The notes under the pieces were generated by a model, which saw nothing but the letters and a program-made list of their open reading frames with translations, was not told the DNA's origin and did not search any database. Position numbers and translations under genes: made by a program. From Verrucomicrobia bacterium UBA2281 (GTDB lineage Bacteria > Verrucomicrobiota > Kiritimatiellia > CAIQIC01 > Lenti-01), in assembly GCA_002347655.1 (NCBI GenBank), contig DDWR01000020.1:76155-140154 (forward strand): a stretch of DNA of 64,000 nt. The letters are read 5' to 3'. Shown piece after piece: positions 16,801-36,800 of this stretch (position 1 is the stretch's first letter; each line of letters starts with the position of its first letter).

Positions 16801-18641
16801 TGCACCCCATGGGCAACTGGATCGCCGCCATCTTGTTGGGAAGCGCTGCCGGCATTTTCCTGCTGAGCAAGTGCCTGTTTCTTGCGGCCTTTCGGCTTGG
16901 GTTTGCGATGGTGCTGGCCAATCTCGTCTATGAGGTGGCCGAACGCAAGGCGAGGCTCGGGCGCACGACGCTGGATGCCATCGCCTGGGTCGCGCTGGTC
17001 GCCGGGTTCGGCCTGTGGGGCGGGGGCTGGGCGGCGGCGGCCGCCGCCGTGTTGCTGGGCCTGGCTTGGATCGGCTATCTGTTCGTGGATGCGGAATGGA
17101 AGGCCGCCCGTCTGGCGCGGCAAAGCACGGAAACGGCTGGGCGCGTGCCGCTGCCCATTCCGCGCCTGGTCGTTTGCATTCGCGGGCCGGTGTTGGAGCG
17201 CGGCCGCGCGGAAGACGATCTCGGCGACTGGCCGGAACGGTGGGAGGATCGGTTTGAAATCGTCGTCCTGAATCCCAGTCCGATGCCGGCCCAATTGCCG
17301 GTCGAAGTCCACGTCGTTTCTTCCACCGTGCAACTGGAGGTGTCGGGAACGGTAGGGGGCGAATTGCCGCCGCCGGCATCCGGCGAAATCGTATCCATGA
17401 AGTTCGGCCTGCGCGCGGCCGGCAGCGGGCCGGGCGGCGAAGTCCGCGTGCACGTCCAGCACGGCGATTTCCATTATCGTCGGACCCTGCGCGTGCGCTC
17501 GATCGTGCCGCGCAGCCAGATCGCCGTGAAGCGGGCGGACGTCCGCCGCTGGAAGGGCGGTGCGCGCGGGGCGTTCGTCTGGCGCGGCGATCAGGATCTC
17601 TACGATCCGGCCACGTTCCAGTCGGCGGACGGCCTGCGCCACGTCTTGGGCCTGGCCCGGCGGTTCCGCATGCCCAACAGCCTGATGCTGTCCGCGCGCC
17701 TGAGCCTGGTGCCGGAAGAACACAAGGCGTTTTGCGAACGCTTTGGCTGGGACCGCAAAACGGGCGAAATCCAGGCCTTCATCCGGTTTCTGCGCGAGGA
17801 AGTGGACAAATCCCCGGAGCAGGAATGGCCGGTCGCGACGGTCAAGCCGTACGCCGCGGAGATTGGCAACCACTTCTATCTGCACTACGGCACGCATGCC
17901 GCGGCCGCCGAGGGCAACGGCTGGAAGAGCCATGCCGGCATCGGGGCCGGTCATTATTCCTGGTTCAGCCGCAATCCGATGGATTCCTTCCTCGAGCAGC
18001 GCGACAACGCCGTGAAAGGCAGCCAGGTTCTGAAGGATGCGCTCGGCGCGGCACCCGCCAGTTTCACGATCCCGAGCGACGTGTTCGACGGCGACACCGC
18101 CCGGGCCATGGAAGCGGCCGGCCTGGAAGTCGGGTCCGAAACCGATACGCCGAAGTGGGAAAAACTGCTGCATTTGGCCCCTCCGCACCATCCCGCCGGC
18201 TGCGAGCGGTTCGTGGAACTGCCGCGCATGCATCCGCGCGATCCCGAGAACGCCGGCCAGGTGGCGATGTTGAAATACTGGGTCGGCGCCGCGCGCCGCT
18301 CGGGACGGGCGCTGGTGTTTTTGGCCCACCACCATTTGATGCGCTACCGGGGCTGCGAAAGCGCGGCGTTGGTCGAAACCTTCCTGCACCACGTGCTGGC
18401 GAACCAGCAGGGCGACCTGTACGTCGGCACGCTGACGGCCGTGGGTCGCTACTGGCGCGACGTGCTCAGCCCGCGCACCCGTTGCGTCAAGGCGACGGCG
18501 ACGGGCAACCGCGTTTCCCTTGCGAACGCCGCTCCGCGCGCGTTCGCGGCCTTGCCGCTGGAAATCGATCTCGGCGGCGGCAAACGCCACCTGCGGCTGG
18601 TGGACGTCGGCGCCAAGGCAACTGTGGATCTAGACGTATAA
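16797..18641 (+). CDS. membrane-anchored deacetylase-like protein (two N-terminal TM helices, beta-rich middle domain, C-terminal NodB/glycoside-hydrolase-deacetylase-like domain); paralogue A
   Basis: ATGA overlap at 16797. 614 aa. His-rich motifs (..GNHFYLHYGTH.., ..LAHHHLMRYRG..). About 35-40% identity by eye to CDS 21549..23330 over the full length. Confidence 0.5.
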   Translation: MMHPMGNWIAAILLGSAAGIFLLSKCLFLAAFRLGFAMVLANLVYEVAERKARLGRTTLDAIAWVALVAGFGLWGGGWAAAAAAVLLGLAWIGYLFVDAEWKAARLARQSTETAGRVPLPIPRLVVCIRGPVLERGRAEDDLGDWPERWEDRFEIVVLNPSPMPAQLPVEVHVVSSTVQLEVSGTVGGELPPPASGEIVSMKFGLRAAGSGPGGEVRVHVQHGDFHYRRTLRVRSIVPRSQIAVKRADVRRWKGGARGAFVWRGDQDLYDPATFQSADGLRHVLGLARRFRMPNSLMLSARLSLVPEEHKAFCERFGWDRKTGEIQAFIRFLREEVDKSPEQEWPVATVKPYAAEIGNHFYLHYGTHAAAAEGNGWKSHAGIGAGHYSWFSRNPMDSFLEQRDNAVKGSQVLKDALGAAPASFTIPSDVFDGDTARAMEAAGLEVGSETDTPKWEKLLHLAPPHHPAGCERFVELPRMHPRDPENAGQVAMLKYWVGAARRSGRALVFLAHHHLMRYRGCESAALVETFLHHVLANQQGDLYVGTLTAVGRYWRDVLSPRTRCVKATATGNRVSLANAAPRAFAALPLEIDLGGGKRHLRLVDVGAKATVDLDV

Positions 18642-18678
18642 TGTCGAATGTCGAACTCCGAATATTGAATGTCGAAGG
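18640..18678. repeat. upstream arm of an inverted repeat: AATGTCGAA x2 plus a TGTCGAA partial, AT-rich
   Basis: taATGTCGAAtgtcgaactccgaatattgAATGTCGAAgg, read directly. Its reverse complement TTCGACATT recurs twice downstream of the enclosed gene (19073-19102). Confidence 0.7.
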
Positions 18679-18692
18679 CAGGACGACGTAGG

Positions 18693-19061
18693 ATGCCGGC
18701 GCAAAAATATGATTTAGAAGATCGGCTGGTGGATTACGCTTCTTTGGTCGTTGAACTGACGGAGGCGTTGCCCAGCACGCGCGCCGGCAATCATTTTGCC
18801 GGGCAATTGTTGCGGTCCGGCACGGCGGCGGCGCCGAATTACGGCGAGGCGCAGGCGGCGGAATCCAGGCGCGACTTTGTCCACAAACTGGGCATCTGCT
18901 TGAAAGAATTGCGCGAATCGCGGATTTGGTTGCGTATCGTTCAGCGGCGGACACTGCTCAAGGCCTCCGTCGTGGAACCCGTTTCGCGAGAAACCGAGGA
19001 GCTGATTCGAATCTTCAAGACCAGCATCGCCACCGCCAAACGCAACGAGGCCAAACATTGA
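18693..19061 (+). CDS. four-helix-bundle protein (TIGR02436 / 23S-rRNA-intervening-sequence-protein family)
   Basis: 122-aa protein (MPAQKYDLEDRLVDYASLVVELTEALPS..AGQLLRSGTAAAPNYGEAQAAESRRDFVHKLGICLKELRESRIWLRI..), matching the canonical family pattern. AGGA about 10 nt upstream of the start. Confidence 0.7.
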   Translation: MPAQKYDLEDRLVDYASLVVELTEALPSTRAGNHFAGQLLRSGTAAAPNYGEAQAAESRRDFVHKLGICLKELRESRIWLRIVQRRTLLKASVVEPVSRETEELIRIFKTSIATAKRNEAKH

Positions 19062-19069
19062 GGCCGGAT

Positions 19070-19102
19070 CCCTTCGACATTCGATGTTCATAATTCGACA
19101 TT
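19070..19102. repeat. downstream arm of the inverted repeat: TTCGACATT x2 plus CGATGTT
   Basis: cccTTCGACATTcgatgttcataaTTCGACATTaag, read directly. It ends 4 nt before the next gene's ATG (19107). Confidence 0.7.
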
Positions 19103-26100: not shown

Positions 26101-26391
26101 ATGCAGACGCGCGAAAACATCTTGGCGGCATTGCGGGAGCTCAAACCCGCGCTGGCGATGCGCTACAAGCTGCGCTCCATGGCTTTGTTCGGCTCGTATG
26201 CCCGCGGCGACCAGACGCCGGACAGCGACGTGGACGTTCTGGTCGATTTTGATCCTGCCATCGGCCTCGATTTCGTCGATTTGGCGGAGGCCATCGAGCG
26301 TCGGCTGGGGGTCAAAACGGACGTGGTTCCGGCGGATGGAGTCAAACCGCGTTACCGAGCCGTCATCCAAAAAGATCTGGTACATGTCTGA
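26101..26391 (+). CDS. mntA: nucleotidyltransferase-fold antitoxin MntA (of the HepT/MntA pair)
   Basis: 96 aa with a GS-x9-DxD motif (..LFGSYARGDQTPDSDVDVLVDF..). It overlaps the downstream HepT-like gene by 8 nt. Confidence 0.7.
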   Translation: MQTRENILAALRELKPALAMRYKLRSMALFGSYARGDQTPDSDVDVLVDFDPAIGLDFVDLAEAIERRLGVKTDVVPADGVKPRYRAVIQKDLVHV

Positions 26392-26713
26392 GCGCTCGGC
26401 TGAAATTCTGTTGGACGATATCCGCGAGGCGCTCGCGAAAATCGCCACCTATGTGCAAGGTTTGGATGAGGCTGCCTTTGCTGGCAATGGCATGGTCGTG
26501 GATGCCGTCTTGCGCAACATCTCCGTGATTGGGGAGGCCGCATCCAAGTTGCCGGACGAATTCACTCGCGCCCATCCCGAGATCGAGTGGCGCAAGATCG
26601 TCGGAATGCGCAATCGCCTGATCCACGGCTATTTTGGCGTTAGCCTGCCGTTGGTTTGGCAAACCATCCACGGTCACTTGCCCGAATTTAGGGACAAGCT
26701 GGACAAGCTGTGA
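26384..26713 (+). CDS. hepT: HepT-like toxin (DUF86, RNase of a type II/VII toxin-antitoxin pair)
   Basis: R-x4-HxY motif (..GMRNRLIHGYFGV..), 109 aa, directly coupled to mntA. Confidence 0.75.
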   Translation: MSERSAEILLDDIREALAKIATYVQGLDEAAFAGNGMVVDAVLRNISVIGEAASKLPDEFTRAHPEIEWRKIVGMRNRLIHGYFGVSLPLVWQTIHGHLPEFRDKLDKL

Positions 26714-27108
26714 TCCGGTTGACTTCGGTTTCCCTTGTTGTTCGGCGCTGGATTTGCGCAATCCATCTGGCCCTGATCGCCGTTCTCTCGTTGGCGCCGG
26801 CGTGGTTGTTTCCACCGTCGCCGCCCGGGCTGCCGGGCATCGACAAGGCCGTGCACGTGGGGCTGTACGGGATTCTGGGCGCGTTGTTGCGATGGGCGGC
26901 CGGACCGTGGGCCGCGACGCGCGCGGCGCTGGCGTTGCCGGCAGCGGGGGCGTTGTATGGGCTTCTGTTGGAACTGCTGCAGCCTTGGCTCGGTGGAGCG
27001 GGGCGGGCATTCAGCTGGGCGGATGCGGCGGCAAATCTGGCCGGGATCGTCCTGTTCTGGGTGGTTGCCGGCCGATTTCTGGGGCGGGAAAATTCATCTT
27101 TTCGATGA
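26710..27108 (+). CDS. VanZ-family membrane protein
   Basis: GTG 26710 overlaps the hepT TGA. Four predicted TM segments (..WICAIHLALIAVLSLAP.., ..DKAVHVGLYGILGALL.., ..AGIVLFWVVAG..). Confidence 0.55.
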   Translation: MIRLTSVSLVVRRWICAIHLALIAVLSLAPAWLFPPSPPGLPGIDKAVHVGLYGILGALLRWAAGPWAATRAALALPAAGALYGLLLELLQPWLGGAGRAFSWADAAANLAGIVLFWVVAGRFLGRENSSFR

Positions 27109-27184
27109 TTTTCTGCGTTCCTTTCGGTCGCGTTGGCGATATACTCCATTGAAATGGCCTTTACAGCGTAAAGGGCCGGATGCC

Positions 27185-29086
27185 ATGATCCATCAATTCA
27201 AGAACCGGAATTTCTACGTCATCCTGGCCGGGGACCTGCTGCTGTTCGCCGCCTCGTTGATCTTGGCCTACGGTCTGCGGTTCTCCCTGGACATTCCGGA
27301 AAAGGACTGGAGCCGCATCCTGTTCCTGTTGCCGTTTTTGCTGCCGGTGAAGACCGTTGTTTTCATGTTGATGGGCGTCTACCGGGGGATGTGGCGCTAT
27401 ACCAGCGTCCCGGACGCCCTCCGACTGGTCAAGGCGTCGGTGCTGGCCACCTTGACCGTGATGACGGCCCTGACGCTGACGCAGCAATTCTACGGCTATT
27501 CCCGCTCCGTGTTCGTGGCGGATTGCATTTTCACGATCTTTTTCTGCGGCGGGTTCCGCTTGGCCATCCGGATCCTGGGCACGAACAAGCGGGCCATGCT
27601 CAAGTTCTGGGACCGGGAGCCGGAGGACAGCCTGCCGGTCCGGCACGTGCGGCTGCTGATCATCGGCGCGGGGGATGCGGCGGCCAGCATCATCCGGGAA
27701 ATCCAGGGCAATCCGCGTTCGTCCTACGACGTGGTGGCCTGCATCGACGACGACCACCACAAGTACGGCCAAACCCTGCTCGAAGTGCCGGTGCGCGGGC
27801 CGATCGACAAGCTGTTGTATTTCGTGAACCGCTTCCAGGCCGACGAAATCCTGATCGCGATGCCGTCGGTGGTGGGCGAGGAAATGCGCCGGATCGTCGG
27901 CGCCTGCAAGGCGGCCGGTTTGCCGTTCAAGACCTTGCCGTCGCTGGGGGCGCTGGTGGACGGCAAAGTGACGGTAAACGACGTCCGCGAAGTGAAGTAC
28001 GAGGACATCCTTGGCCGCCCGCCGGTCCAGATGGACTACGCCGGCATCGGCCAGTATCTCACGGGCAAAACCGTGGCCGTGACCGGGGCCGGCGGCTCCA
28101 TCGGTTCGGAACTGTGCCGGCAGATCCTGCGCTTCAAGCCGGCGGCGCTGGTGCTGATCGAGGCCAACGAATTCAACCTCTACCGGATCGAGCGGGAATT
28201 GCTGGCCGACCGCCACGCAGGCGTGCTGCGCGTCGTGATGGGCCGGGTGCAGGACCGCGCGCTGATGGCGAACGTCTTCGACAAGTACCGGCCGCACGCC
28301 GTGTTCCACGCCGCCGCCTGCAAGCACGTGCCGATGGTGGAAACCAATCCCTGGGAGGGCATCCTCAACAACACGGTCGGCAGCCAGACGCTGATGGACG
28401 TGGCGGAGGAGTACGGCGTCGAGCGGTTCGTGCTGGTGTCGACGGACAAGGCGGTGCGGCCGACGAACGTGATGGGCGCGAGCAAGCGCGCGGCCGAGAT
28501 CGCGCTGCAGGCCCGCGCGCCGGGCAAAACCCGTTTCATGGCGGTGCGGTTCGGCAACGTGCTGGGGTCTTCGGGTTCGGTGATTCCGCTGTTCCGGAAG
28601 CAGATCCAGGCCGGCGGGCCGGTGACGGTGACGCATCCGGAGATGACCCGCTACTTCATGATGATTCCCGAGGCCTGCCAATTGATCCTGCAGGCGGGCG
28701 CAATGGGCGCCGGCGGCGAAATCTTCATTTTGGAGATGGGCACGCCGGTCAAGATCGCCGACATGGCCCGCGACATGATCCGGCTGTCCGGCAAGGTGCC
28801 CGACCAGGACGTCCAGATCGTCTACACGGGCCTGCGTCCGGGCGAAAAGCTCTACGAAGAGTTGATCACGCAGGGCGAAGGCATCGTGGCGACCGCGCAC
28901 GAGAAGATCATGGTGCTCAAGCGGGACGGCCAAGGTGCCGTTGCCGCCGATGCGGACCGGAACGTCCGCGCGCAGATCGACCGTTTGGCGGCGGCGGCGG
29001 CCACCTTCGAGCCGGAACGGATCAAGGCCGCGCTCAAGGAAATCGCGCCCGAATACGCGCCGGCCAATCATTCCGCGCCGGCATGA
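27185..29086 (+). CDS. membrane-bound UDP-N-acetylglucosamine 4,6-dehydratase (PglF/CapD/WbpM-like polysaccharide biosynthesis protein)
   Basis: N-terminal 4 TM segments, then Rossmann GxGxxG (..LLIIGAGDAAAS.. and ..VAVTGAGGSIGSEL..), ..VFHAAACKHVPMVE.., ..VSTDKAVRPTNVMGASKRAAE... 633 aa from ATG 27185. The track ORF extends upstream in-frame to 26957, but that extension overlaps vanZ. Confidence 0.8.
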   Translation: MIHQFKNRNFYVILAGDLLLFAASLILAYGLRFSLDIPEKDWSRILFLLPFLLPVKTVVFMLMGVYRGMWRYTSVPDALRLVKASVLATLTVMTALTLTQQFYGYSRSVFVADCIFTIFFCGGFRLAIRILGTNKRAMLKFWDREPEDSLPVRHVRLLIIGAGDAAASIIREIQGNPRSSYDVVACIDDDHHKYGQTLLEVPVRGPIDKLLYFVNRFQADEILIAMPSVVGEEMRRIVGACKAAGLPFKTLPSLGALVDGKVTVNDVREVKYEDILGRPPVQMDYAGIGQYLTGKTVAVTGAGGSIGSELCRQILRFKPAALVLIEANEFNLYRIERELLADRHAGVLRVVMGRVQDRALMANVFDKYRPHAVFHAAACKHVPMVETNPWEGILNNTVGSQTLMDVAEEYGVERFVLVSTDKAVRPTNVMGASKRAAEIALQARAPGKTRFMAVRFGNVLGSSGSVIPLFRKQIQAGGPVTVTHPEMTRYFMMIPEACQLILQAGAMGAGGEIFILEMGTPVKIADMARDMIRLSGKVPDQDVQIVYTGLRPGEKLYEELITQGEGIVATAHEKIMVLKRDGQGAVAADADRNVRAQIDRLAAAAATFEPERIKAALKEIAPEYAPANHSAPA

Positions 29087-30507
29087 CGCCCGGGAGTTCC
29101 ACGCCGGTTTTCTGGTGCCGGAAGGCGTCGGTATCCGCCTGTCGCGAGGGCGACAACCTCATCCTGTTCGATCCCGACCGCGCCCGCGAAAAAGTCGTCA
29201 ACCGCGCCGGCACCGCCGTCTGGGAAGCCATGGACGGTGCAGCGCGGACGGAGGATCTCGCGGCGGCGCTGGCTCGGCGCTATGAAACCGCGCCGGCGGA
29301 CGATGTCCGCGCCGACGCCCGCGCGTTCGCGGAAGAACTGCTCCGCGACGGATTCGCCGCGGCCGCGCCCGCGCCGCGGCCGGTGCCGCTGCCGGCGGAG
29401 GACTATTCCTGGCTGCGCGAGGCGCCGCGCGCGCTGGATCTCTCCTTGACCGGCCGCTGCAACCTGCGGTGCGCCTATTGCTTCTATGCGGACGAAATGG
29501 TCGGGCGGCGGGATCTGCCGGCGAAACGCTGGCTGGATTTCTTCGCGGAATTGAAACGCCTTGCGGTGCGCAGCCTGACGCTGAGCGGCGGCGAGCTTTT
29601 CATGCGGCCGGATTTGTGGGAACTGCTCGACGGAATCGTCGCGGCGCGCATGCGCTTTTCGATCCTGACCAACGGGACGCTGCTGACGGAAGACGTTCTC
29701 GCGCAACTGGGGCAGGCGCACCGGCGGCGGCGGCTGGACGTGGTCCAGGTGTCGATCGACGGCTCGCGGGCGGAGATCCACGATGCGTCGCGCGGCCAGG
29801 GCAGTTTCGAGAAGGCGCTCCGCGGGCTGCGGCTTTTGAAGGCGGCGGGCATTCCGGCGACGGCCCGCGTGACGGTCAACCGGCACAACGCCGGCGATCT
29901 GGAGAATACGGCGCGGTTGCTGCTGGACGAGATCGGCCTGGCGCGGGTCGGCACGAACGACGCGATGCCGATGGGCACCGGCTGCGCGCGGCGGGAAGAC
30001 ATCGTGCTGTTGCCTGCGCAGCGCCCCGAAGCAATGCGCACGCTGGTCCGGCTCGAGAAACAATATCCCGGCCGCATCACGGCCACGGCCGGTTCGCTGG
30101 CGCTGTGGCACATGTTCCGCGAGATGGAGGAGGCGCGGGCCACGGGACAGAAGACCCGGCGCTGGAGAATGGGTTGCCTGTCGTCCTGCGGGTGCATGTT
30201 CGCGAAGCTGGCGGTGCACCACGACGGCATGATCGTGCCGTGCAACATGCTGGCGGCAGCTGCGCTGGGCTCCATCGGCGAGACGCCGATCCGCTCCATC
30301 TGGCAGGACCATCCGCTGCTGAAGGAAATGCGCGGGCGGGGGCAGATCCCGATGGCCCGGGTGCCGGGCTGCGCGGATTGCGAATGGGCGCCGTATTGCA
30401 GCGGGGGGTGCCCGGCGGCGGAATACACCCGGACGGGCGAAATGAACGTGGCGAATCCGGAGTGCTGCTACCGGCGGTTCCTTGAAGAGTGTGGGGAATT
30501 GCCGTGA
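29083..30507 (+). CDS. radical SAM/SPASM-domain peptide-modifying enzyme with fused N-terminal PqqD-like RRE (RiPP recognition element)
   Basis: ATGA overlap at 29083. N-terminal 90 aa is PqqD-like (..LILFDPDRAREKVVNRAGTAVWEAMDGAARTEDLAAAL..). CxxxCxxC (LTGRCNLRCAYCF). C-terminal SPASM Cys cluster (..CLSSCGCMF..C..CADCEWAPYCSGGC..). Confidence 0.8.
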   Translation: MTPGSSTPVFWCRKASVSACREGDNLILFDPDRAREKVVNRAGTAVWEAMDGAARTEDLAAALARRYETAPADDVRADARAFAEELLRDGFAAAAPAPRPVPLPAEDYSWLREAPRALDLSLTGRCNLRCAYCFYADEMVGRRDLPAKRWLDFFAELKRLAVRSLTLSGGELFMRPDLWELLDGIVAARMRFSILTNGTLLTEDVLAQLGQAHRRRRLDVVQVSIDGSRAEIHDASRGQGSFEKALRGLRLLKAAGIPATARVTVNRHNAGDLENTARLLLDEIGLARVGTNDAMPMGTGCARREDIVLLPAQRPEAMRTLVRLEKQYPGRITATAGSLALWHMFREMEEARATGQKTRRWRMGCLSSCGCMFAKLAVHHDGMIVPCNMLAAAALGSIGETPIRSIWQDHPLLKEMRGRGQIPMARVPGCADCEWAPYCSGGCPAAEYTRTGEMNVANPECCYRRFLEECGELP

Positions 30508-30523
30508 GAGGGAGGGGGGGCAT

Positions 30524-30561
30524 CGAGGTCCGAGGTCGGAGGTCCGAGGTCGGAGGTCCGG
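30524..30561. repeat. tandem heptanucleotide array (SGAGGTC) x5 copies; upstream inverted partner of the array at 31001-31084
   Basis: cgaggtc cgaggtc ggaggtc cgaggtc ggaggtc cgg, read directly. It is the reverse complement of the GACCTCS units downstream of the enclosed gene. Confidence 0.8.
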
Positions 30562-30618
30562 AAGGCAGGGACAAGAGATGCGAGATCCGAAGCCCGCGGG
30601 CAATGAAAAGGAGCGCAA

Positions 30619-31002
30619 GTGAAAATATTTTCGGCGAAGGATTTGGATGCCTATCGGCTGGCGTATTCGCTGGCGATGGAAATTTTCCGGCTGAGCAAAA
30701 AGTGGCCGGCCGAGGAAAAATATTCGCTGACAGATCAAGTGCGCCGCAGTTCGCGTTCGGTGTGTGCCAACATGAGAGAGGCGTGGGCCAAACGAAGATA
30801 TGAAGCCCATTTCATGAGCAAACTGACGGATTGCGACGGCGAAAACAGCGAAACGGACACTTGGCTGGATTTCGCCCGCGATGGCGGATATTTGCCGTCC
30901 GCCGATCATAAACGCCTGACAGCCGACTGCAAACGGGTCGGGGCAATGCTGGGAGGCATGTTGAGAAACCCGGCCCCGTTTTTGAAGGGTGACCCTCCGT
31001 GA
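30619..31002 (+). CDS. four-helix-bundle protein (TIGR02436 / 23S-rRNA-IVS-protein family), second copy
   Basis: GTG start preceded by AAAAGGAG. MKIFSAKDLDAYRLAYSLAMEIFRLSKKWPAEEKYSLTDQVRRSSRSVCANMREAWAKRRYEAHFMSKL.. is a textbook match to the family consensus. Confidence 0.75.
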   Translation: MKIFSAKDLDAYRLAYSLAMEIFRLSKKWPAEEKYSLTDQVRRSSRSVCANMREAWAKRRYEAHFMSKLTDCDGENSETDTWLDFARDGGYLPSADHKRLTADCKRVGAMLGGMLRNPAPFLKGDPP

Positions 31003-31631
31003 CCTCGGACCTCCGACCTCGGACCTCGGACCTCCGACCTCGGACCTCGGACCTCCGACCTCGGACCTCGGACCTCGGACTTCGTTTCGCGCTCCGCGCG
31101 GACGTCGCCATCGAAGATTTCGGCGAGCGGGCGCTGGTGCTGCGATGCGACGCGCTGGAGCTGCGCGAAGTCAACGCCGGCGGCCGGAAGATCCTGGAAC
31201 GGGTTGACGGCAACCGGACGGTGAAGGATATTGCCGGCGATGCGGGAATGGCGGTCGACGTCGTCCGCGACGCGTTGCTGGAGATGGAACGCCAGGGGTT
31301 GGTCCGGCGCGTCGTGGAATTGAGAAAGGAAAGGTTCGGAAATATGAGCGAGGCCCAATATCTGGCCGACCCCGACGTGTCCTTCCGTCCGGAAGACGAC
31401 GACGGAGGCATTCTCTACAACGCGGAAACCGACGTGCTGGAAGTGATCAATCCGACGGCCGCCGAGATCTGGAAGTTCCTCGCGGCGCCGCGCACGCCGG
31501 CCGACGTGGTCGCGCATCTGCTCGGCGTCTGCGACGGCGCGTCCCGGGACCAGGTCGAGCGGGACGTGGAGGCGTTTCTGGAGTCCATGCGGAGCAAGGG
31601 CTTCGTCGGCGTGGTCGCGGAGCCGGCATGA
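30999..31631 (+). CDS. tandem PqqD-like (RRE) domain protein; N-terminal 28 aa encoded by the heptanucleotide repeat. May alternatively be expressed as a separate PqqD unit from the internal ATG at 31344.
   Basis: Single ORF with no in-frame stop. GTG 30999 overlaps the upstream TGA (GTGA). Two PqqD-like halves (..ALVLRCDALELREVNAGGRKILERVDGNRTVKDIAGDAGMAVDVVRDALLEMERQGLV.. and MSEAQYL..GGILYNAETDVLEVINPTAAEIWKFLAAPRTPADVVAHLL..RDVEAFLESMRSKGFV). AGGAAAGG lies 9 nt before the internal ATG 31344. Start choice uncertain. Confidence 0.5.
   Translation: MTSDLRPRTSDLRPRTSDLRPRTSDLGLRFALRADVAIEDFGERALVLRCDALELREVNAGGRKILERVDGNRTVKDIAGDAGMAVDVVRDALLEMERQGLVRRVVELRKERFGNMSEAQYLADPDVSFRPEDDDGGILYNAETDVLEVINPTAAEIWKFLAAPRTPADVVAHLLGVCDGASRDQVERDVEAFLESMRSKGFVGVVAEPA
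31001..31084. repeat. tandem heptanucleotide array (GACCTCS) x12 copies (84 nt), inverted relative to 30524-30561
   Basis: gacctcg gacctcc gacctcg gacctcg gacctcc ... gacttcg, read directly. It is in frame with the ORF 30999..31631 and encodes (TSDLRPR)x4. Confidence 0.85.
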
Positions 31632-32827
31632 CGGATCCGCGCGACTCCTGCGACGGACTGGCCGACCGGCCCGCGGCCGGGCCGGTGGTCGCCATGTCGC
31701 CGGACGTCCCGGCCTTGCGGACGTTCTATCTCTACCTGTCCGCCGGCTGCAACCTGCATTGCCGGCATTGCTGGATCACGCCGACGTTCGTGCATGGGAA
31801 ACCGGTCCCGGCCGAATGCCTGGATTTCGGCTTGTTGAGAAGCGCGGTGGCGGAAGCCAAGCCGCTGGGACTGGCGGCCGCCAAATTGACGGGCGGCGAG
31901 CCGACCCTGCATCCGGAATTCCGGCAGATCGTCGATTTCCTGACGGCGGAGGGCCTGGAACTGTCCATGGAAACCAACGCCACGCTGATCGACCGCGAGT
32001 TGGCGGTGCATCTGGTTTCCAAGACGAACCTGAGGCGGGTCGCCGTGAGTTTGGACAGTTCCGTTCCGGAAGCGCACGACCGTTTCCGGGGGGTAAAGGG
32101 GGCCTTTGCCGCCGCGGTGGCGGGCATCGGGCATTTCGTGGCGGCCGGAATGCGCCCGCAGCTCATCATGTCGGTTTATCGCGGCAATCTGGACCAGATC
32201 GAAGGCTTGATCGAACTGGCGATCCGGCTGGGCGCGGGCGCGGTGAAGTTCAATCCGGTGACGCAGTCGGGCCGCGGCGCGGACCTGCACCGGCAAGGGC
32301 AGGGGCTGGATTTCGACGAGTGGCTGGCGCTGATCCATCGCATCAAAGGGCCGCTTCAAGACCGCTATCCCGCGATGCATCTGGGGGCGATGGTGCCGCC
32401 GGCGATGTCGAGCGCAAAAGAACTCCTGCGCTACGGCGCGGAGGGCGCGGGCTGCCACGTGCGCCACATTCTCGGGATCCTCGGCACGGGCGAAATGGCC
32501 TTGTGCGGCATCGGGCGGAATATTCCCGAGCTTTGCTTCGGCCAATTGGGGAAAGACTCCCTGCGGGAAGTCTGGCTGAACCATCCGACGCTGGTGCAGA
32601 TGCGCAAGGACCTGGAAGGACCTTATCCGGGTATCTGCGGCGATTGCCTGCATGCGGGCCGTTGCATGACCCATTGCCTGGCCCAGAATTTCGAGGCCAA
32701 CGGCAAGCTGGTCTCGCCGTCGCCGCTGTGCGCGGAGGCGGTGCGGCGCGGGGTGTTTCCGCAGAGCCGAAGAAAAACGTGGACAGGGATCAGGGAACAG
32801 GGGACAGGGGACAGCAGAAGACAATGA
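31628..32827 (+). CDS. radical SAM/SPASM-domain protein (second peptide-maturase-type enzyme)
   Basis: ATGA overlap at 31628. CxxxCxxC (..LSAGCNLHCRHCWI..). SPASM-type Cys cluster (..CHVRHIL..LCGIGRN..CGDCLHAGRCMTHC..). 399 aa. Confidence 0.8.
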   Translation: MTDPRDSCDGLADRPAAGPVVAMSPDVPALRTFYLYLSAGCNLHCRHCWITPTFVHGKPVPAECLDFGLLRSAVAEAKPLGLAAAKLTGGEPTLHPEFRQIVDFLTAEGLELSMETNATLIDRELAVHLVSKTNLRRVAVSLDSSVPEAHDRFRGVKGAFAAAVAGIGHFVAAGMRPQLIMSVYRGNLDQIEGLIELAIRLGAGAVKFNPVTQSGRGADLHRQGQGLDFDEWLALIHRIKGPLQDRYPAMHLGAMVPPAMSSAKELLRYGAEGAGCHVRHILGILGTGEMALCGIGRNIPELCFGQLGKDSLREVWLNHPTLVQMRKDLEGPYPGICGDCLHAGRCMTHCLAQNFEANGKLVSPSPLCAEAVRRGVFPQSRRKTWTGIREQGTGDSRRQ

Positions 32828-32857
32828 CACTATTTCCGACAATCTCGGGGCTTTAAA

Positions 32858-33460
32858 GTGTCACCGGTTTCCTGTCACCTGTCTCCTGGGCTCGGTCTTT
32901 TCCTCCACGCTTCCGCAGTGGCGTTGCCGGAGGGGGCGGTGCTGTTTCTCGGCCATTCCACGGCCGGAAAAAGCACGCTGGCGCGGAAAATGGGCGAACA
33001 GGTGCCGGTGCTGGCCGACGATTCCGTGTATGCCGCGCGGGATGCGGAGGGGCTCTGGCGGGTGGTCGACGGGGGCTTTCGCTTTGACCAGGGCTGGGGC
33101 ATGGCCGAATGGATGACCGATGTCCGGCGGCACTTCCAGGAGGGGCGCGGGGTCCCTGTGCGGAAGTGCTTTCGCATCCATCAAGCGCCCGCGGTGCGGA
33201 TCGAGCCGATGCCGCCGGTGCAACTGGGGAAGCACCTGATGGACGCCGCGATGGAAATCGACGTGCAACGGAAATTCGGCAGAATAGCCGCGGATCGACC
33301 GTCGGAACGCAATGTCTGGCAGGAAGTTGTGCAACAAAGGCGGCTTTGGTTCCGGCTGACCGCGGAATTGGCCCGCAGCTGCCCGGGAGGGCACCTTTGG
33401 TTCGCCAAAGAGACGCCGGCAAGTGAAGTGTTGGCGGCGGTCGCCCAGACGCAAGGTTGA
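32858..33460 (+). CDS. HprK-related P-loop kinase (HPr kinase C-terminal-domain-like)
   Basis: Walker A GHSTAGKST (..AVLFLGHSTAGKSTLARKMGE..), about 200 aa, which is the size of the HprK C-domain. GTG start 31 nt after the rSAM stop. Confidence 0.55.
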   Translation: MSPVSCHLSPGLGLFLHASAVALPEGAVLFLGHSTAGKSTLARKMGEQVPVLADDSVYAARDAEGLWRVVDGGFRFDQGWGMAEWMTDVRRHFQEGRGVPVRKCFRIHQAPAVRIEPMPPVQLGKHLMDAAMEIDVQRKFGRIAADRPSERNVWQEVVQQRRLWFRLTAELARSCPGGHLWFAKETPASEVLAAVAQTQG

Positions 33461-33816
33461 GGCGGTTTTTCCAAAAAATCGCAACAAATGACCTGTTCGG
33501 GGCTGAAAACGGCTCCATTCGGCTCTGAAAAGCTCTCCAACGGCGGAAATTTCATCGAAAACGGATCAATTTTCGTTCTGCGCGCCCAAAATTAGCGGAA
33601 AGAGCCCTCTTGCGCGCCTCTGTTAAGCTGAAATTGCAGAAAACTCCTTAAAAATCGCCCTAAAACGGCCCAAAGGGCCCGAAGTCTTAATCAAAACCAC
33701 ACACGAATATAATCTATATTTAATTGTGCATGATTTGCGCACATTCCTGTGGGAGAATATGATGTCGTTATCAATTGAAGAGAGTTTCGCCGTCTGCAAC
33801 AGGTTGCGCGGAAAGA
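33461..33816 (+). promoter_or_regulatory. unusually AT-rich 350-bp intergenic region; putative promoter/regulatory region of the giant gene
   Basis: Abrupt drop in GC (ttccaaaaaatcgcaacaaatg.., ..aatataatctatatttaattgtgcatgatttgcgcaca..). Contains direct repeats gctgaaaacggctcc / ctctgaaaagctctcc and an imperfect palindrome tgtgcatgatttgcgcaca just upstream of the start. Confidence 0.3.
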
Positions 33817-36800
33817 ATGAGAAAACGGTCCACATTTCGGATTGGGCGGTGTTCGTGGTGTGCGATGGCCGCGGCACTGGTTCTGGCTGGACCCGTGTGG
33901 GGTGGGAACCCGGACGGGGATCTGCGCGTCGAGATCATCACGGCCTACAATCTGGTGGTGGATTCCAACGCGGAGTCGCCCTCGACCTACGCGCCGAAAT
34001 CGGCCTACATCGGGGCGAAGTTCTGCAACGACGGCGCCAACGCGCTGACGAACGTCTGGGCGTACATCGGCGATCTGGACGCCGGGACGCCGGGGACCTA
34101 TCCGAGCCGGGCGCACCCGCCGCTGGTCGGTCCGCTGCCGGGCGGGGAATTCGCGCTGGTCCACGAGGGCGGCACGATGGGGGCGAACGACGCGACGCGC
34201 TACGTCGGCACCATCGAGCCGGGCGAATGCGTCACGGTCTATTGGCTCGTCAGCTATCCGCAGCTGGATGAAAACGGCGACGCGGTCTGGGGGCCCAGCA
34301 TCAAGCCCGACGACGACCTGTGGCTGGAGTACGACGTCTGGGCCACGGCCCGGGACGGCGGCGCCTATCTGCAGGCCGACGACTCGCGCACGCTGACCTG
34401 CCGCAACGAAATTTCCGCCATGGCCAACAAGATCTGGCCCAACGGCGCCAACAAGGTGCCCCAGGAATACAAGGATTTGCTGCAGCAGTACGCGCCGCTC
34501 TGGACGAACACGTCGGCCGTCGCCGAACCCGGCGCGATCCTGCGCACGGAAGGCATCTGGTACGATCTGGGCAACGTTGGCGACGGGTTCGACAACGACG
34601 GCGACCTGGTGCCGGACCGCAACGCGTGGCTCCAGCCCGTCGGCGATCCGGATCTGTTTGATCCGTCCTGCTTCCGGCTGGTGCGCACCTACGCGATGGT
34701 GATCGTGAAGCTCAACGACGGGACCGAGCAGGTCATCGTCGTGGAGGACCAGCTCTACTTCACCCAGATCCCCGCGAACAACCGCGGGGCGGTGGGCTAC
34801 GTGATGTACGAGTTCATTGCCATCGGGTCGGGCTGCGTCAGCACCCTGACGCCGTACCAGGAAGTGGCCTCGGGCTTCGACAACGAGAAGTTCAACGGCG
34901 ACTACGGCGCGCCGGGGCAGACCCTGACCGGCGGCACGTCGCTGCTGGCCATCGCGAAAACGGCGGACCCGACCCTGACGCGGCCGGGAAGCAACGTCGC
35001 CTATACGGTCACCTATACGAATTCGGGCCCGGATCCCTCCGGCCGGCCGGACATCGGCTTGCCGGTGGTGATCCAGGATGCCATCCCCACGGGCACGGTC
35101 TACGTGGCGGGCAGCGCGACGGCCGCCAACGTCCTGCCACAAGGCGTAGGCAGCTACACGGTCTATTTCTCGACGAACCACGGCCTGACCTGGTCCCTGA
35201 CGGAGCCGGCGATCGCCACCAACGTGACGGACGTGCAGTGGTGGCTGAGCGATCCGTTGCCGCCCGGCGGAACCGGCACCGTGAAGTTCTCCGTCACGGT
35301 CAAGAATCCCTGGCCTTACCCGAGCCCGGTCGTGCCGAACACCTCGGGACTGAGCTTCGGCAACACGACGCCGTTCCTGTGGGCGCACGCGCAGACGCTG
35401 CTGCTGGGCAACAACGCGCTGGGCGACACGGTCTGGCGCGACGACGGCGAAGGCGGCGGTCTGCTCGGCAACCAGCTTCAGGACGGCGGTGAAACCGGCA
35501 TCACCGGCGTGACGGTGCGCCTGTATTACGATCTGGACGGCGACGGCGGAGCCGACTATCTGTTCGCGACCACGAACACCGGCGCGAGCGGTTACTACAC
35601 CTTCACCAACCTGCCCGACGGCCATTTCGTCGTGGTCGTGGACGCCGCGGATCCGGACGTGCCGTTCGGCTACACGCCGACCACGCCGACGGCCTTTCCC
35701 ATTGCGCTCGATCCCGCGCGCACCAACGTCAATCCCGTCGTGGACTGGACCTCCGACTTCGGCTTCGCGCCGGCCCTGACGCTGGTGAAGACGTGGACCA
35801 GCACCAACGCCGTCCGCGAAGGCCAGTTGATCGGCTACAATCTGACGGTCTCCAACAGCCTGCCGGGCGACGGCACCGGTTCAGGTTCGCCGGCGACTTA
35901 TTTCGCCTGGGCGTCCACCGGTGGCGCCAACTATAAAAACACCGAATGGGTGGACTACTGGAACGCCTACACTCCCCCGGGGCCGGACGGCGTGTACTGT
36001 TCCAACCAGTTCGCGGGCCCGACGACGGTGCTCTCGCTCACCAACTTTACCGTCGGCGCGCAATTGGGGGAGGCGACCACCGTCTCGCTCGTGATTCCGA
36101 TCTTGATGGTTCCGCCCATCGGCGGCGACGACACGGTGACCATCGACGTCCGAACCAAGTCGCCCTCCGAGTCGCGCTTCACCGAGACGTATCTGGCGAC
36201 CAACCTCGTCAACGGCGTCTGGACGATTCCCATGACGGGCATTTACGATTGGGCCTGGGCGGACTTCGACACGAACGCCGTGGTGACGCTGACGGCCAAG
36301 AAGAACGCCGGCGGCACGGCCGGCGGCTGGATCCTGGTGGACGCGGTCGGGTTCAAGATCGAAAGCGACCAGACCGTCGGCGTGGCCGGCGGCACCACGA
36401 CGCTGGATCCGGTGCCCCTCGTGGACCGCTACGATCCGGCCCGCCTGCAGTTCGTGAGCGCCCAGCCGCCGGAGTCGCGCGTGGTCTCCAACGGCACCGG
36501 CACGATCTACTGGGACAACGTGGGGCCGATCTATCCCGGCGGCACCTCGACGGTGGCGGTGACGTTCAAGCTGCTCGAGCCGCCCAACAACACCAACGCC
36601 GTCGTCACGAATACCACCTGGGTCACCAACGCCTACTTCCAGGGCGGCGCGCAAGCCAACAACGCCACGAGCAGCGTGGTCGTCACGCAGTTTCCGGCCG
36701 CGACCGTCGGCGACTACGTCTGGCGCGACCTGGACGGCGACGGCATCCAGGACGCGGGCGAACCGGGCGTGCCCAACGTGGCCGTGTCCATCACGCCGCC

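Follow-up and report, generated by a model that had tools for sequence, protein, structure and literature searches.

A four-helix-bundle gene bracketed by inverted heptamer arrays in a SynChlorMet radical-SAM operon: a likely IVS-type cassette

Results

Genes and heptamer arrays at the locus

The window (the whole stretch of DNA that was analysed, 64,000 nucleotides) carries a SynChlorMet operon in which a small four-helix-bundle (4HB) gene lies between the genes of an ScmE fusion protein and an ScmD-like protein, with an ScmF gene following (Table 1). The ATG of the ScmE fusion (29083) overlaps the stop of a CapD-like gene, its orthologues are 474 aa long, and its native stop is kept (TGA 30505-30507, within ccGTGA). 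On the other side, comparison with the empty sites of the related loci L084 and L081 places the restart of native ScmD-like sequence at about 31077 (ggacttcg...). The preliminary description had reported that arrays of a 7-nt repeat bracket a TIGR02436-type gene in inverted orientation, and Tandem Repeats Finder, pattern and HMM searches all bear this out. When one mismatch is allowed, GAGGTCSGAGGTC has 17 matches in the window; 15 lie inside the two arrays, on opposite strands, and shuffled sequences average 0.34 matches, with no more than 3 in any. Neither arm contains a stop codon in any frame, and the 5' arm is purine-rich. An inverted-repeat search matches the two arms to each other over 35-37 nt with 95-97% complementarity in several registers. 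Four period-7 arrays are detected in the window, all of them in three hairpin elements.

Table 1. Features of the operon junction and of the other heptamer elements in the window
Feature	Position	Strand	Details and basis
Second cassette, 5' arm	18640-18676	+	(AATGTCG) x5.3; upstream ORF stop (18639-18641) overlaps first unit
Second cassette, cargo gene, 122-aa 4HB protein	18693-19061	+	TIGR02436 3.4e-21, 75.5 bits
Second cassette, 3' arm	19073-19102	+	TTCGACA TTCGATG TTCATAA TTCGACA TT, complementing AATGTCG; next ATG 19107
Upstream host gene, PqqD-domain/ScmE radical-SAM/SPASM fusion	29083-30507	+	PF05402 + PF04055 + PF13186; TIGR04250 401 bits (cut-off 400)
G-rich spacer gagggagggggggcat	30508-30523	+	Sequence (GAGGGAG GGGGGCA), compared with L001 and L085
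5' arm	30524-30560	+	(SGAGGTC) x5.3, period 7 (consensus CGAGGTC); Tandem Repeats Finder, pattern search, inverted-repeat search
Cargo-gene leader	30561-30618	+	Shine-Dalgarno-like AAGGAG 30608-30613, 5 nt ahead of GTG
Cargo gene, 127-aa 4HB protein, GTG start	30619-31002	+	TIGR02436 / PF05635 ('23S rRNA IVS protein', S23p family)
GTGA overlap	30999-31002	+	4HB stop TGA 31000-31002 / only in-frame ScmD-like start GTG 30999-31001
Downstream host gene, ScmD-like with PqqD domain	30999-31631	+	PF05402 1.1e-16; TIGR04248
3' arm	31001-31084	+	(GACCTCS) x12.0, period 7, complement of 5' arm; Tandem Repeats Finder GACCTCG, 90% matches, score 140
ScmF radical-SAM/SPASM gene	31628-32827	+	TIGR04251 9.2e-99, 331 bits, under curated cut-off 400
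Cargo-less inverted heptamer hairpin	32783-32888	+	(GGGACAG) x4.6 at 32783-32814; (CTGTCNC) at 32859-32888

The arms had been expected to form a stem, and the predicted fold of the RNA from 30490 to 31110 agrees with this (-287 kcal/mol, z = -6.5). The prediction contains an uninterrupted, perfect helix of 29 bp (30523-30551 with 31043-31071) and about 61 arm-to-arm pairs in all, and a base of the 5' array pairs with the 3' array with a probability of 0.95. The antisense strand folds almost as stably (-268 kcal/mol vs -287 for the sense strand). The run of G ahead of the upstream array, also singled out in the preliminary description, is present but neither special nor conserved in full: the closest orthologue, L001, has a shorter GAGGGAG stretch and L085 has none. 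The spacer probably represents decayed outer repeat units. An rRNA context was considered and rejected: the flanking genes are ScmE and ScmD-like, Rfam returned neither rRNA nor any credible RNA family for 29000-34000 (the sole matches are far under the gathering scores), and a scan of 20 related loci placed none of them in an rRNA gene.

The cargo gene product matches PF05635 (2.4e-29, 102.1 bits; curated cut-off 33.8) and TIGR02436 (1.5e-27, 96 bits; curated cut-off 24), and its sequence relatives in the PDB, 2gsc (5.8e-10) and 2rld (1.4e-05), were each deposited with five chains. The gene is under strong purifying selection, with dN/dS of 0.058 against L001 and 0.077 against L085. In the predicted fold, its Shine-Dalgarno and start region has a mean pairing probability of just 0.45. 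A promoter scan found no promoter-like site in the 5' arm or the leader; its only two matches lie on the minus strand inside the 4HB ORF and on the plus strand inside ScmD, and we found no convincing signal for a promoter or terminator of the cassette's own. Phage origin and membership in a defence system were tried as identities for the 4HB gene and discarded, with no close relatives among 2.9 million viral contigs and no PADLOC match, respectively.

Other heptamer elements in the window

Two elements that the preliminary description did not mention share the heptamer design: a second cassette at 18640-19102 and a hairpin at 32783-32888 that carries no gene of its own. The minimum-free-energy fold of the second cassette pairs both of its arms (z = -2.95). 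Its 122-aa 4HB protein gives no BLASTP alignment with the 127-aa protein, and tblastn with the first 4HB failed to recover its gene, to which the heptamer array led instead. The cargo-less hairpin is predicted to fold with -53.9 kcal/mol (z = -4.7). Its 5' arm supplies the final ScmF codons, and both the ScmF stop and the GTG start of an ScmC-like gene (32858) lie in or beside its loop. The same junction is variable in relatives: homologous hairpins are found in L085 and L086, a PDDEXK_3 cassette in L001, other array-like repeats in L081 and L082, and no hairpin in L084, L087 or L088.

Recurrence of arrays around 4HB genes

Homologous loci from many phyla were compared in two independent sets, each of about 80, one drawn from genomes and one from metagenomes, about 160 loci in all. 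Period-7 arrays flank the gene in approximately 75-85% of the loci, purine-rich upstream and complementary downstream. The inverted-repeat score in the genome set exceeds the 99th percentile of controls in 57 of 76 loci (p = 4e-28). Seven is the dominant tandem period in the flanks, with upstream arrays in 46 of 78 loci vs 30 of 935 control windows; in these control windows, located away from the query genes, all other periods together account for only 7 of 935. In the metagenome set, arrays are present upstream in 66 of 76 cases and downstream in 60 of 76. Clear arrays are missing in about 20% of loci, and L014 and L172 have direct rather than inverted arrays. Plasmids of Nostoc and Leptolyngbya also carry 4HB genes between heptamer arrays. 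Of four cyanobacterial plasmid loci that we inspected, three have a purine-rich array upstream and its pyrimidine-rich complement downstream; the fourth, from Oscillatoria, has direct arrays. Of 159 loci, 151 have an intact 4HB ORF.

The loci lie in tightly packed operons, with a same-strand neighbour upstream in 67 of 70 loci and downstream in 56 of 69, at median gaps of 89 and 74 nt, and they are enriched in surface-polysaccharide operons. The two arms covary: within-locus similarity is 0.446 vs 0.205 for permuted partners, and none of 2000 permutations reaches the observed value. Mismatches between the arms, counted over the best ungapped alignment in each of 57 loci, carry no strand-specific RNA signal (G·U 100 vs A·C 81, p = 0.18). 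RNA duplex folding leaned to the sense strand (47 vs 28 loci, p = 0.009), a result on which we do not rely, as the method discriminates poorly in GC-rich sequence. Since G·U pairs are not in excess and the antisense fold is almost as stable, selection might instead work at the DNA level, or a copying process might keep the arms alike with no selection for RNA pairing. Very divergent 4HB genes have repeat units of their own (the window at 18640-19102, L042, L076), and unit specificity holds only at this distance. The idea that each 4HB subfamily has its own heptamer was rejected for close subfamilies, whose units form a YCAGRRR continuum and are sometimes mixed in one array.

Filled, empty and replaced junctions in close relatives

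By annotation, the nearest relatives of the host genes belong to Kiritimatiellia or Verrucomicrobiota. Among orthologous SynChlorMet operons of close relatives (88-92% protein identity), the ScmE/ScmD junction occurs in several states. It is empty in L081, L084, L087 and L088, where the two genes meet in a 4-nt stop/start overlap (the gene-finder start in L080/L081 gives a 19-nt overlap, with the GTGA present as well). The window, L001 and L085 have type-1 cassettes, with array copy numbers varying among the three, and L082 and L086 have type-2 cassettes. The ScmE/ScmF identity of the window with the empty L081 is 91%; the identity of its 4HB with that of L082 is only 57%. Because the junction is empty or filled by another 4HB cassette in close relatives, gain, loss or replacement must be recent. 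The proposal of a mobile IVS-like cassette that has invaded the operon is well supported by these junctions, by the recurrence of the gene with its inverted heptamer arrays in unrelated contexts across phyla, and by the heptamers reported for the stem of the Coxiella 23S rRNA IVS. The cassette contains no transposase, recombinase or reverse transcriptase that we could find, and no clear target-site duplication. CCGTGA is present at both of its ends (RTGA in L001 and L085), an agreement that the requirement for a stop/start overlap may explain alone.

Translation through the 3' array

The 3' arm is not only a repeat. It is read as (TSDLRPR)n and forms an N-terminal extension of the ScmD-like protein, a coding property that the preliminary description did not include. 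Array-encoded N-termini are also found in homologues (e.g. MTSDLGPR..., SCPLSPDSC...). All five filled orthologous junctions combine the RTGA overlap with in-frame reading through the 3' array. It had been proposed that the cassette decouples the downstream genes. With the 4HB TGA overlapping the GTG at 30999 and the array read in frame at 5/5 filled junctions, the sequences suggest that this probably has the direction wrong, and that the cassette would maintain translational coupling. The JGI and NCBI gene calls cut the downstream gene to a 164-aa version, and one assembly ends within the 5' array.

Comparison with known elements

Intervening sequences (IVSs) of 23S rRNA that contain an ORF (S23p / PF05635) occur in Leptospira, Coxiella burnetii, Xanthomonas and Brucella, at helix 25 or 45. 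Both the elements and the conserved ORF were already known in the early 1990s, and we know of no function or mode of spread for either. The cassette in the window resembles them in its PF05635 cargo family and in that a long terminal stem holds the gene in its loop. The stem of the Coxiella 23S IVS is 28 bp long (4 x 7) and consists of three to four tandem heptamers, GACAGAT, in strain-variable copy number, and RNase III cuts where the first heptamer repeat begins (PMC4990558). Tandem heptamers likewise make up the stem in the window, in 5.3 and 12 copies that vary in L001 and L085, and the core of the cassette (30524-31084, 561 nt, of which gene and leader take up about 440 nt) compares with 428 nt in Coxiella. 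By contrast, the cassette in the window sits in a protein-coding operon, its 3' arm doubles as coding sequence of the next host gene, and its ORF has a good Shine-Dalgarno sequence and is under strong purifying selection, whereas that of Coxiella is reportedly decaying and not translated. For the latter reason the rRNA precedent may not transfer.

The heptanucleotide STRR sequences are similarly old and, to our knowledge, unexplained and described from cyanobacteria only. They are tandem 7-bp intergenic units in gene clusters, e.g. between hupS and hupL, that form hairpins and have been proposed to affect transcript stability and translational coupling (PMC2670836). The arrays in the window are also hairpin-forming tandem 7-bp units, and the hairpin at 32783-32888 looks STRR-like; the host, however, is most likely a member of the Kiritimatiellia/PVC bacteria, and the units SGAGGTC, GGGACAG and AATGTCG are not the canonical STRR1-3. 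We found no paper that ties STRR to 4HB genes.

REP/REPIN-RAYT systems offer another likeness, a single small gene bracketed by an inverted short repeat that is also found elsewhere in the genome without the gene. REP sequences, however, are single palindromic units, and the arms in the window are tandem, microsatellite-like arrays. RAYT is an HUH transposase whose action on REP sequences has been demonstrated, while we know of no catalytic activity of the 4HB protein. The heptanucleotide contingency loci of Haemophilus share with the 3' array a translated tract whose unit is not a multiple of three, where slippage should frameshift; the tract in the window differs in forming one arm of a gene-carrying hairpin cassette. 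As for transposons and MITEs, the cassette does have inverted arms, and the CCGTGA at its two borders is ambiguous. Our search of the full-text literature returned no description of 4HB genes outside rRNA that are bracketed by heptamer arrays, although unsearchable journals might hold one; the heptamers were mentioned only in the Coxiella IVS paper.

Discussion

We interpret 30508-31084, with moderate confidence, as an IVS-type gene cassette that acts by the mechanism set out below and is inserted in a SynChlorMet radical-SAM operon. On this interpretation the cassette is a conserved, translated 4HB gene in the loop of a long hairpin with inverted 7-nt arrays as arms, and its insertion point is exactly the ccGTGA stop/start overlap between ScmE and the ScmD-like gene. 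The observations behind it are the architecture and its recurrence, the covariation of the arms, the sense orientation in packed operons, the polymorphism of the junction and the purifying selection on the 4HB gene. This selection and the enrichment in polysaccharide loci suggest that the 4HB protein is useful in some way; a 'selfish hitch-hiker' reading leaves both unexplained.

Transcription would reach the cassette by read-through from the operon's promoter. The two arms of the transcript would zip into a perfect duplex of at least 29 bp and be cut by RNase III, by extension from the Coxiella 23S IVS, and cleavage would free the 4HB message and join or insulate its flanks. RNase III needs approximately 20 bp of duplex; the predicted stem is longer and would make a textbook substrate, and a role as an RNase III processing site or attenuator is plausible by analogy. 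The host would tolerate the insertion since downstream expression would be rescued: a ribosome ending at the 4HB TGA may re-initiate at the overlapping GTG and continue in frame through the 3' array, which appears to have lost its usual TGA-containing unit (CCTCTGA to CCTCSGA) with a matching change in the 5' arm. The most plausible route of spread and exchange would have the arrays serve as portable homology arms, in recombination or template switching with arrays or array-like targets, the cargo-less hairpins being candidate recipient or remnant sites. Given that the array is coding, gain or loss of one or two of its 7-nt units by slippage would put ScmD out of frame, and the junction would become a potential on/off switch as a side effect.

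Such a switch could also be what the element serves. The cassette would then be a regulatory device of the host, in which slippage in the translated 3' array switches ScmD together with the coupled ScmF and ScmC, as in phase variation, or the stem tunes the stability or stoichiometry of the upstream and downstream message, and the 4HB protein is a co-opted RNA-binding partner. The near-perfect coding array of 12 units, each of a length not divisible by three, is consistent with this, as are the frame kept at every filled junction, the loss at the ScmE/ScmD junction of the TGA common to most other arrays, and the different array copy numbers in relatives. Phase variation is common in surface-polysaccharide operons, in which the loci are enriched, and the effects proposed for cyanobacterial STRR hairpins (PMC2670836) point the same way. 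We nevertheless consider such a device unlikely. It is dispensable, since close relatives manage with a simple 4-nt overlap in this operon and lack the cassette, and frame switching is not general: of 152 loci, 98 have a 3' region that closes all three frames, and the downstream ORF spans the array in just 10.

A second explanation assigns the arrays to the protein. A pentameric 4HB would bind its own heptamer arrays, as DNA or RNA, and drive their upkeep, expansion or dispersal, in the manner of RAYT and REP, with cargo-less hairpins as non-autonomous derivatives. The regular association of the gene with arrays (about 75-85%) fits this, and so do the very different units of very divergent 4HB genes (AATGTCG, CGAATTG and TTTCTAG vs YCAGRRR), the cargo-less hairpins with like units at neighbouring junctions, and the excess of period-7 arrays over those of other periods in the control windows too (30 vs 7 of 935). 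In the literature, the DGR homologue Avd is described as an accessory to the DGR reverse transcriptase in cDNA synthesis. Among close subfamilies, however, the unit is unspecific, with one 4HB type accompanied by AGAGGTC, AGGAGTC, ACAGGGG and GGCAGGG, sometimes in the same array; the 4HB protein matches no defence-system model in PADLOC, and we know of no nuclease or recombinase activity of the fold. We regard this explanation, too, as improbable.

A broader proposal would unite 4HB cassettes, 23S rRNA IVSs and cargo-less hairpins, including the cyanobacterial STRR, in one pan-bacterial family of mobile hairpins propagated through RNA. A stem-capped RNA freed by RNase III would be bound by an Avd-like 4HB pentamer, which would bring in a reverse transcriptase of the cell or a recombination activity, and the copy would be placed at array-like gene junctions or helix tips. 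We think this quite doubtful; if true, it would give the orphan IVS ORF and the STRR repeats a shared function.

Avd itself is a pentameric, nucleic-acid-binding four-helix bundle of the same superfamily as the 4HB protein, and the gene could in principle be the Avd accessory gene of a degenerate diversity-generating retroelement with unrelated repeats (PF22296, bAvd, 1.2e-08; NF033474, DGR Avd, 2.2e-06), but this is highly improbable and the identity was rejected, as both scores are under the cut-offs (35.9 vs 40 bits and 27.9 vs 80 bits), the gene lies directly between ScmE and ScmD and has neither a reverse transcriptase nor template or variable repeats (TR/VR) beside it, the viral contigs searched hold no close relatives, and the architecture is repeated in about 150 loci within ordinary operons.

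The window and the related loci indicate that the gene of the 'IVS protein' normally moves as a hairpin cassette with arms of heptamer arrays, and that its usual home is ordinary operons, surface-polysaccharide clusters above all. Experiments are made feasible by filled and empty sister loci and by named carriers such as Nostoc punctiforme PCC 73102, with NPUN_RS36250 on pNPUN02, and Tangfeifania diversioriginum DSM 27063, with L072, and the arrays affect both annotation and assembly. Cassettes of this kind are gained, lost and swapped at precise stop/start junctions among close relatives, and host genes can come to rely on them for a start codon and an N-terminus.

A hairpin cassette within the Scm operon

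The first cassette (30508–31084) is part of a SynChlorMet (Scm) radical-SAM cluster located where a polysaccharide-type gene cluster ends. This intervening-sequence (IVS)-type hairpin cassette with a four-helix-bundle (4HB) gene resides within an mRNA operon and provides the next gene with its start. Tandem Repeats Finder resolves two arrays of opposite orientation, and 15 of the 17 window matches to a double-unit pattern fall inside them, on opposite strands (shuffle mean 0.34). Inverted-repeat pairs of 35–37 nt with 95–97% complementarity occur in many registers. The enclosed ORF, with AAGGAG five bases 5′ of its start, scores far over the cut-offs of both PF05635 (2.4e-29) and TIGR02436 (1.5e-27). 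The repeat finder, the pattern search and the family profiles confirm the preliminary description of inverted 7-nt arrays around a TIGR02436-type gene. RNA folding likewise bears out the proposed hairpin: in the predicted fold of 30490–31110 (−287 kcal/mol, z = −6.5), bases of the 5′ array have a probability of 0.95 of pairing with the 3′ array, and 61 arm-to-arm pairs include an uninterrupted 29-bp helix between 30523–30551 and 31043–31071. A scan of this cassette for promoter- or terminator-like signals gave nothing that stood out. Within the polysaccharide cluster, just 5′ of the CapD-like gene, is an ORF for a HepT-like RNase toxin, residues 1–74 of which match no family.

Coordinates of the hairpin elements and neighbouring genes in the window
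Feature	Position	Description
Second cassette	18640–19102	4HB hairpin cassette
Second cassette, 5′ array	18640–18676	AATGTCG, 5.3 copies
Second cassette, cargo	18693–19061	122-aa 4HB, TIGR02436 3.4e-21
Second cassette, 3′ arm	19073–19102	complement of the AATGTCG array
DegT-type aminotransferase		precedes HepT-like ORF
HepT-like ORF	26198–26713	PF01934, 1.2e-27
CapD-like dehydratase	26957–29086	follows HepT-like ORF
PqqD–ScmE fusion	29083–30507	directly before first cassette
First cassette, 5′ array	30524–30560	CGAGGTC, period 7, 5.3 copies
First cassette, 4HB ORF	30619–31002	127 aa, GTG start, between the arrays
First cassette, 3′ array	31001–31084	GACCTCG, reverse complement of 5′ unit, 12.0 copies
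ScmD-like PqqD protein	30999–31631	starts inside first cassette
ScmF	31628–32827
Cargo-less hairpin	32783–32888	GGGACAG / CTGTCNC, arrays 44 nt apart
ScmC-like protein	32858–33460	followed by giant repeat protein

The four period-7 arrays detected across the window are all accounted for by three elements: two cassettes and a cargo-less hairpin. The AATGTCG array pointed to the second cassette, whose 4HB protein yields no BLASTP alignment with that of the first. This cassette makes up the entire gap between co-directional genes: its first unit overlaps the stop of the ORF upstream, and at 19107 an ATP-grasp gene begins. The cargo-less hairpin consists of inverted arrays of a third unit with no gene between them; the ScmF stop and ScmC start lie in or beside its loop, and each arm is partly coding.

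Gain, loss and replacement at Scm junctions

Homologues of the ScmD-like protein were followed back to their own contigs, across which the Scm operon is conserved and the ScmE/ScmD junction variable. The junction is empty in the related loci L080/L081, L084, L087 and L088, with stop and start overlapping as RTGA (in L080/L081 the called start lies 19 nt inside ScmE). It carries a type-1 cassette (GAGGTCS unit) in the window, L001 and L085, and a type-2 cassette (GGACAGG unit) in L082/L083 and L086; the L082 4HB is only 57% identical to that of the window. The window's ScmE and ScmF are 91% identical to those of empty L081, 90–92% to type-2 L082 and 88–89% to empty L084, and only 72–75% to those of L001 and L085, which carry type-1 cassettes with 4HB proteins 85% and 80% identical to the window's. 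The junction has therefore switched state recently, and more than once. The presence of empty, type-1 and type-2 states among orthologous operons supports the earlier suggestion of a mobile IVS-like cassette.

The native ScmE stop ccGTGA (30502–30507) is intact in the window, and the same hexamer closes the 4HB gene (30997–31002). Native sequence resumes at the final, degenerate unit (window GACCTCGGACTTCGtttcgcg, empty L084 GTGAacgcgGATCTCGGACTTCGctacgcg); judging from the empty site, the target was thus already similar to one or two repeat units. Empty L088 has GACCTCC at the resumption point, and in L082 the array substitutes for ~40 nt of native sequence on either side. The type-2 4HB gene of L086 is a probable pseudogene, since a nonsense codon at ~2800–2815 has TAA in place of the TAC of L082; neither its arrays nor the read-through start used by the downstream gene is damaged.

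The ScmF/ScmC junction is also polymorphic: it is plain in L084, L087 and L088, a hairpin occupies it in the window and homologous ones do so in L085 and L086, and L081 and L082 have array-like repeats of other kinds there. At this junction L001, a Verrucomicrobiota MAG, has a 132-aa PDDEXK_3/GxxExxY gene (5330–5790; TIGR04256, 4e-37) bracketed by a 25-nt inverted repeat (TCTGGAACTCAGGAAAGCATGAAGG / CCTTCATGACTTCCTGAGTTCCAGA). This may be a second small-gene family with a hairpin-cassette lifestyle.

The cassette probably supplies the downstream start

Public calls of the ScmD-like gene (P0121; L169 546–1040) give 164 aa from an internal GTG, window 31135–31631. The conserved N-terminal strand LRFALRADVAIEDFGERAL lies 5′ of that start. 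The sole in-frame start upstream is GTG 30999, inside the cassette, from which the 84-nt 3′ array is translated as VTSDLRPRTSDLRPR. The array must be stop-free for this read-through; the unit of the first cassette is CCTCSGA, not CCTCTGA, with a corresponding TCSGAGG in the 5′ arm. With a 7-nt unit, adding or removing one or two copies would shift the ScmD frame. N-termini encoded by an array, for instance MTSDLGPR... or ...SCPLSPDSC..., are seen in many ScmD-like homologues. An RNase III site or attenuator decoupling the downstream genes had also been proposed. Decoupling probably does not apply, since the cassette leaves translational coupling in place: GTG 30999 overlaps the 4HB stop, and the RTGA overlap with in-frame read-through recurs in 5/5 filled orthologous ScmE/ScmD junctions. 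Across the wider family, 96/152 loci have CTGA within the first unit as the 4HB stop, 98/152 close all three frames within 100 nt, and only 10/152 have a long read-through ORF.

Distribution and conservation

The 4HB family includes 6199 representatives of 50%-identity clusters (E ≤ 1e-3). We compared 79 loci from representative genomes, encoding 4HB proteins 61–89% identical, in Verrucomicrobiota, Kiritimatiellia, Planctomycetota, Desulfobacterota, Ignavibacteriota, Acidobacteriota, Bacteroidota and others. Visual and scripted inspection shows that the majority have upstream a purine-rich array of period 7 (units TCAGAGG, TCGGAGG, TCAGAAG and the like), with its complement downstream. For inverted repeats, 57/76 loci score above the 99th percentile of control window pairs (Mann–Whitney p = 4e-28), and 7 is the best tandem period in 46/78 upstream flanks, compared with 30/935 control windows. 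In a second set of 80 metagenome contigs with relatives of another 4HB subtype, arrays occur on 66/76 upstream and 60/76 downstream flanks. Highly divergent 4HB genes show the same build with other units (L042 CGAATTG, L076 TTTCTAG). Four cyanobacterial plasmid loci were inspected: in the two from Nostoc and the one from Leptolyngbya, purine-rich arrays precede the 4HB gene and their pyrimidine-rich complement follows it, with a unit length of 7–8 nt (by eye, period 8 in both Nostoc loci). The fourth, L172 (Oscillatoria nigro-viridis plasmid pOSC7112.02), has direct rather than inverted arrays around the 4HB gene, as does L014.

In 94 loci with both arrays, the 7-mer cosine similarity of the arms is 0.446 within a locus versus 0.205 for permuted partners, and 0/2000 permutations attained the observed value. 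The arms of one locus share repeat variants; complementarity is therefore kept while the unit drifts.

Neighbours lie on the same strand upstream in 67/70 loci and downstream in 56/69, at median gaps of 89 and 74 nt from the 4HB coding region, so that the arrays fill the intergenic space. The 123 neighbours are enriched in surface-polysaccharide functions (epimerase/dehydratase 14, Polysacc_synt_2 10, Bac_transf 6, NTP_transferase 5) and also include glycosyltransferases, ABC-2 transporters and Wzy_C. Arrays have been absorbed into host genes, as in a glycosyltransferase with array-encoded segments close to both ends (L041 4362–5739) and a protein with an array-encoded start, MASTDLRPPTSDLR (L048 3142–3180); arrays therefore repeatedly yield N- or C-terminal extensions. 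An identical 4HB protein is encoded in L169 (GCA_002412675.1, DHVN01000044.1), where the contig starts 83 nt upstream of the gene, inside the 5′ array. Homologues are often found on very short contigs, and heptamer arrays appear to break short-read assemblies.

The 4HB gene of the first cassette has a dN/dS of 0.058 against L001 and 0.077 against L085, median pN/pS is 0.245 over 290 random pairs, and the ORF is intact in 151/159 loci. On this sequence evidence the cargo is a working gene, its conservation being too strong for a pure passenger. Identification as a DGR Avd gene was rejected: scores fall under the Avd cut-offs, and DGR parts are absent next to the gene. The PDB holds two sequence relatives, 2gsc and 2rld, with five deposited chains each.

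Relation to known elements and interpretation

The 428-nt 23S IVS of Coxiella burnetii, with an S23p ORF inside, has 3–4 tandem heptamers GACAGAT ahead of the ORF in strain-dependent copy number, and a 28-bp stem that RNase III cuts where the first repeat begins (PMC4990558). Its build, a heptamer stem around an S23p/4HB ORF, is that of the first cassette; however, it occupies helix 45 of the 23S rRNA rather than an mRNA operon, and its ORF is decaying, whereas that of the first cassette is conserved. By analogy, the arms of the first cassette are a plausible RNase III site. G·U-compatible changes are not in excess among arm mismatches (100 vs 81), and the antisense strand folds nearly as well as the sense; arm complementarity could therefore be maintained in the DNA itself or through copying from one arm to the other. 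A simple model in which the protein binds its own repeat is weakened, as the unit is not specific among close 4HB subfamilies.

No recombinase, reverse transcriptase or clear target-site duplication was found. We favor a reading in which the arrays would act as portable homology arms, because the target is array-like and neighbouring junctions have cargo-less hairpins with the same types of unit. The cargo-less hairpin of the window fits the description of cyanobacterial STRRs, hairpin-capable 7-bp tandem repeats of unknown function between genes such as hupS/hupL (PMC2670836).

A figure legend of a large CRISPR-discovery study places '23S rRNA IVP' among proteins tied to CRISPR adaptation modules (PMC10910872); as repeat arrays flank 4HB genes, heptamer arrays miscalled as CRISPR might account for some of these associations. 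A full-text literature search, older subscription papers aside, found no paper linking heptamer arrays to non-rRNA 4HB genes. The hairpin-cassette architecture, apparently undescribed so far, is shared within a very large family.
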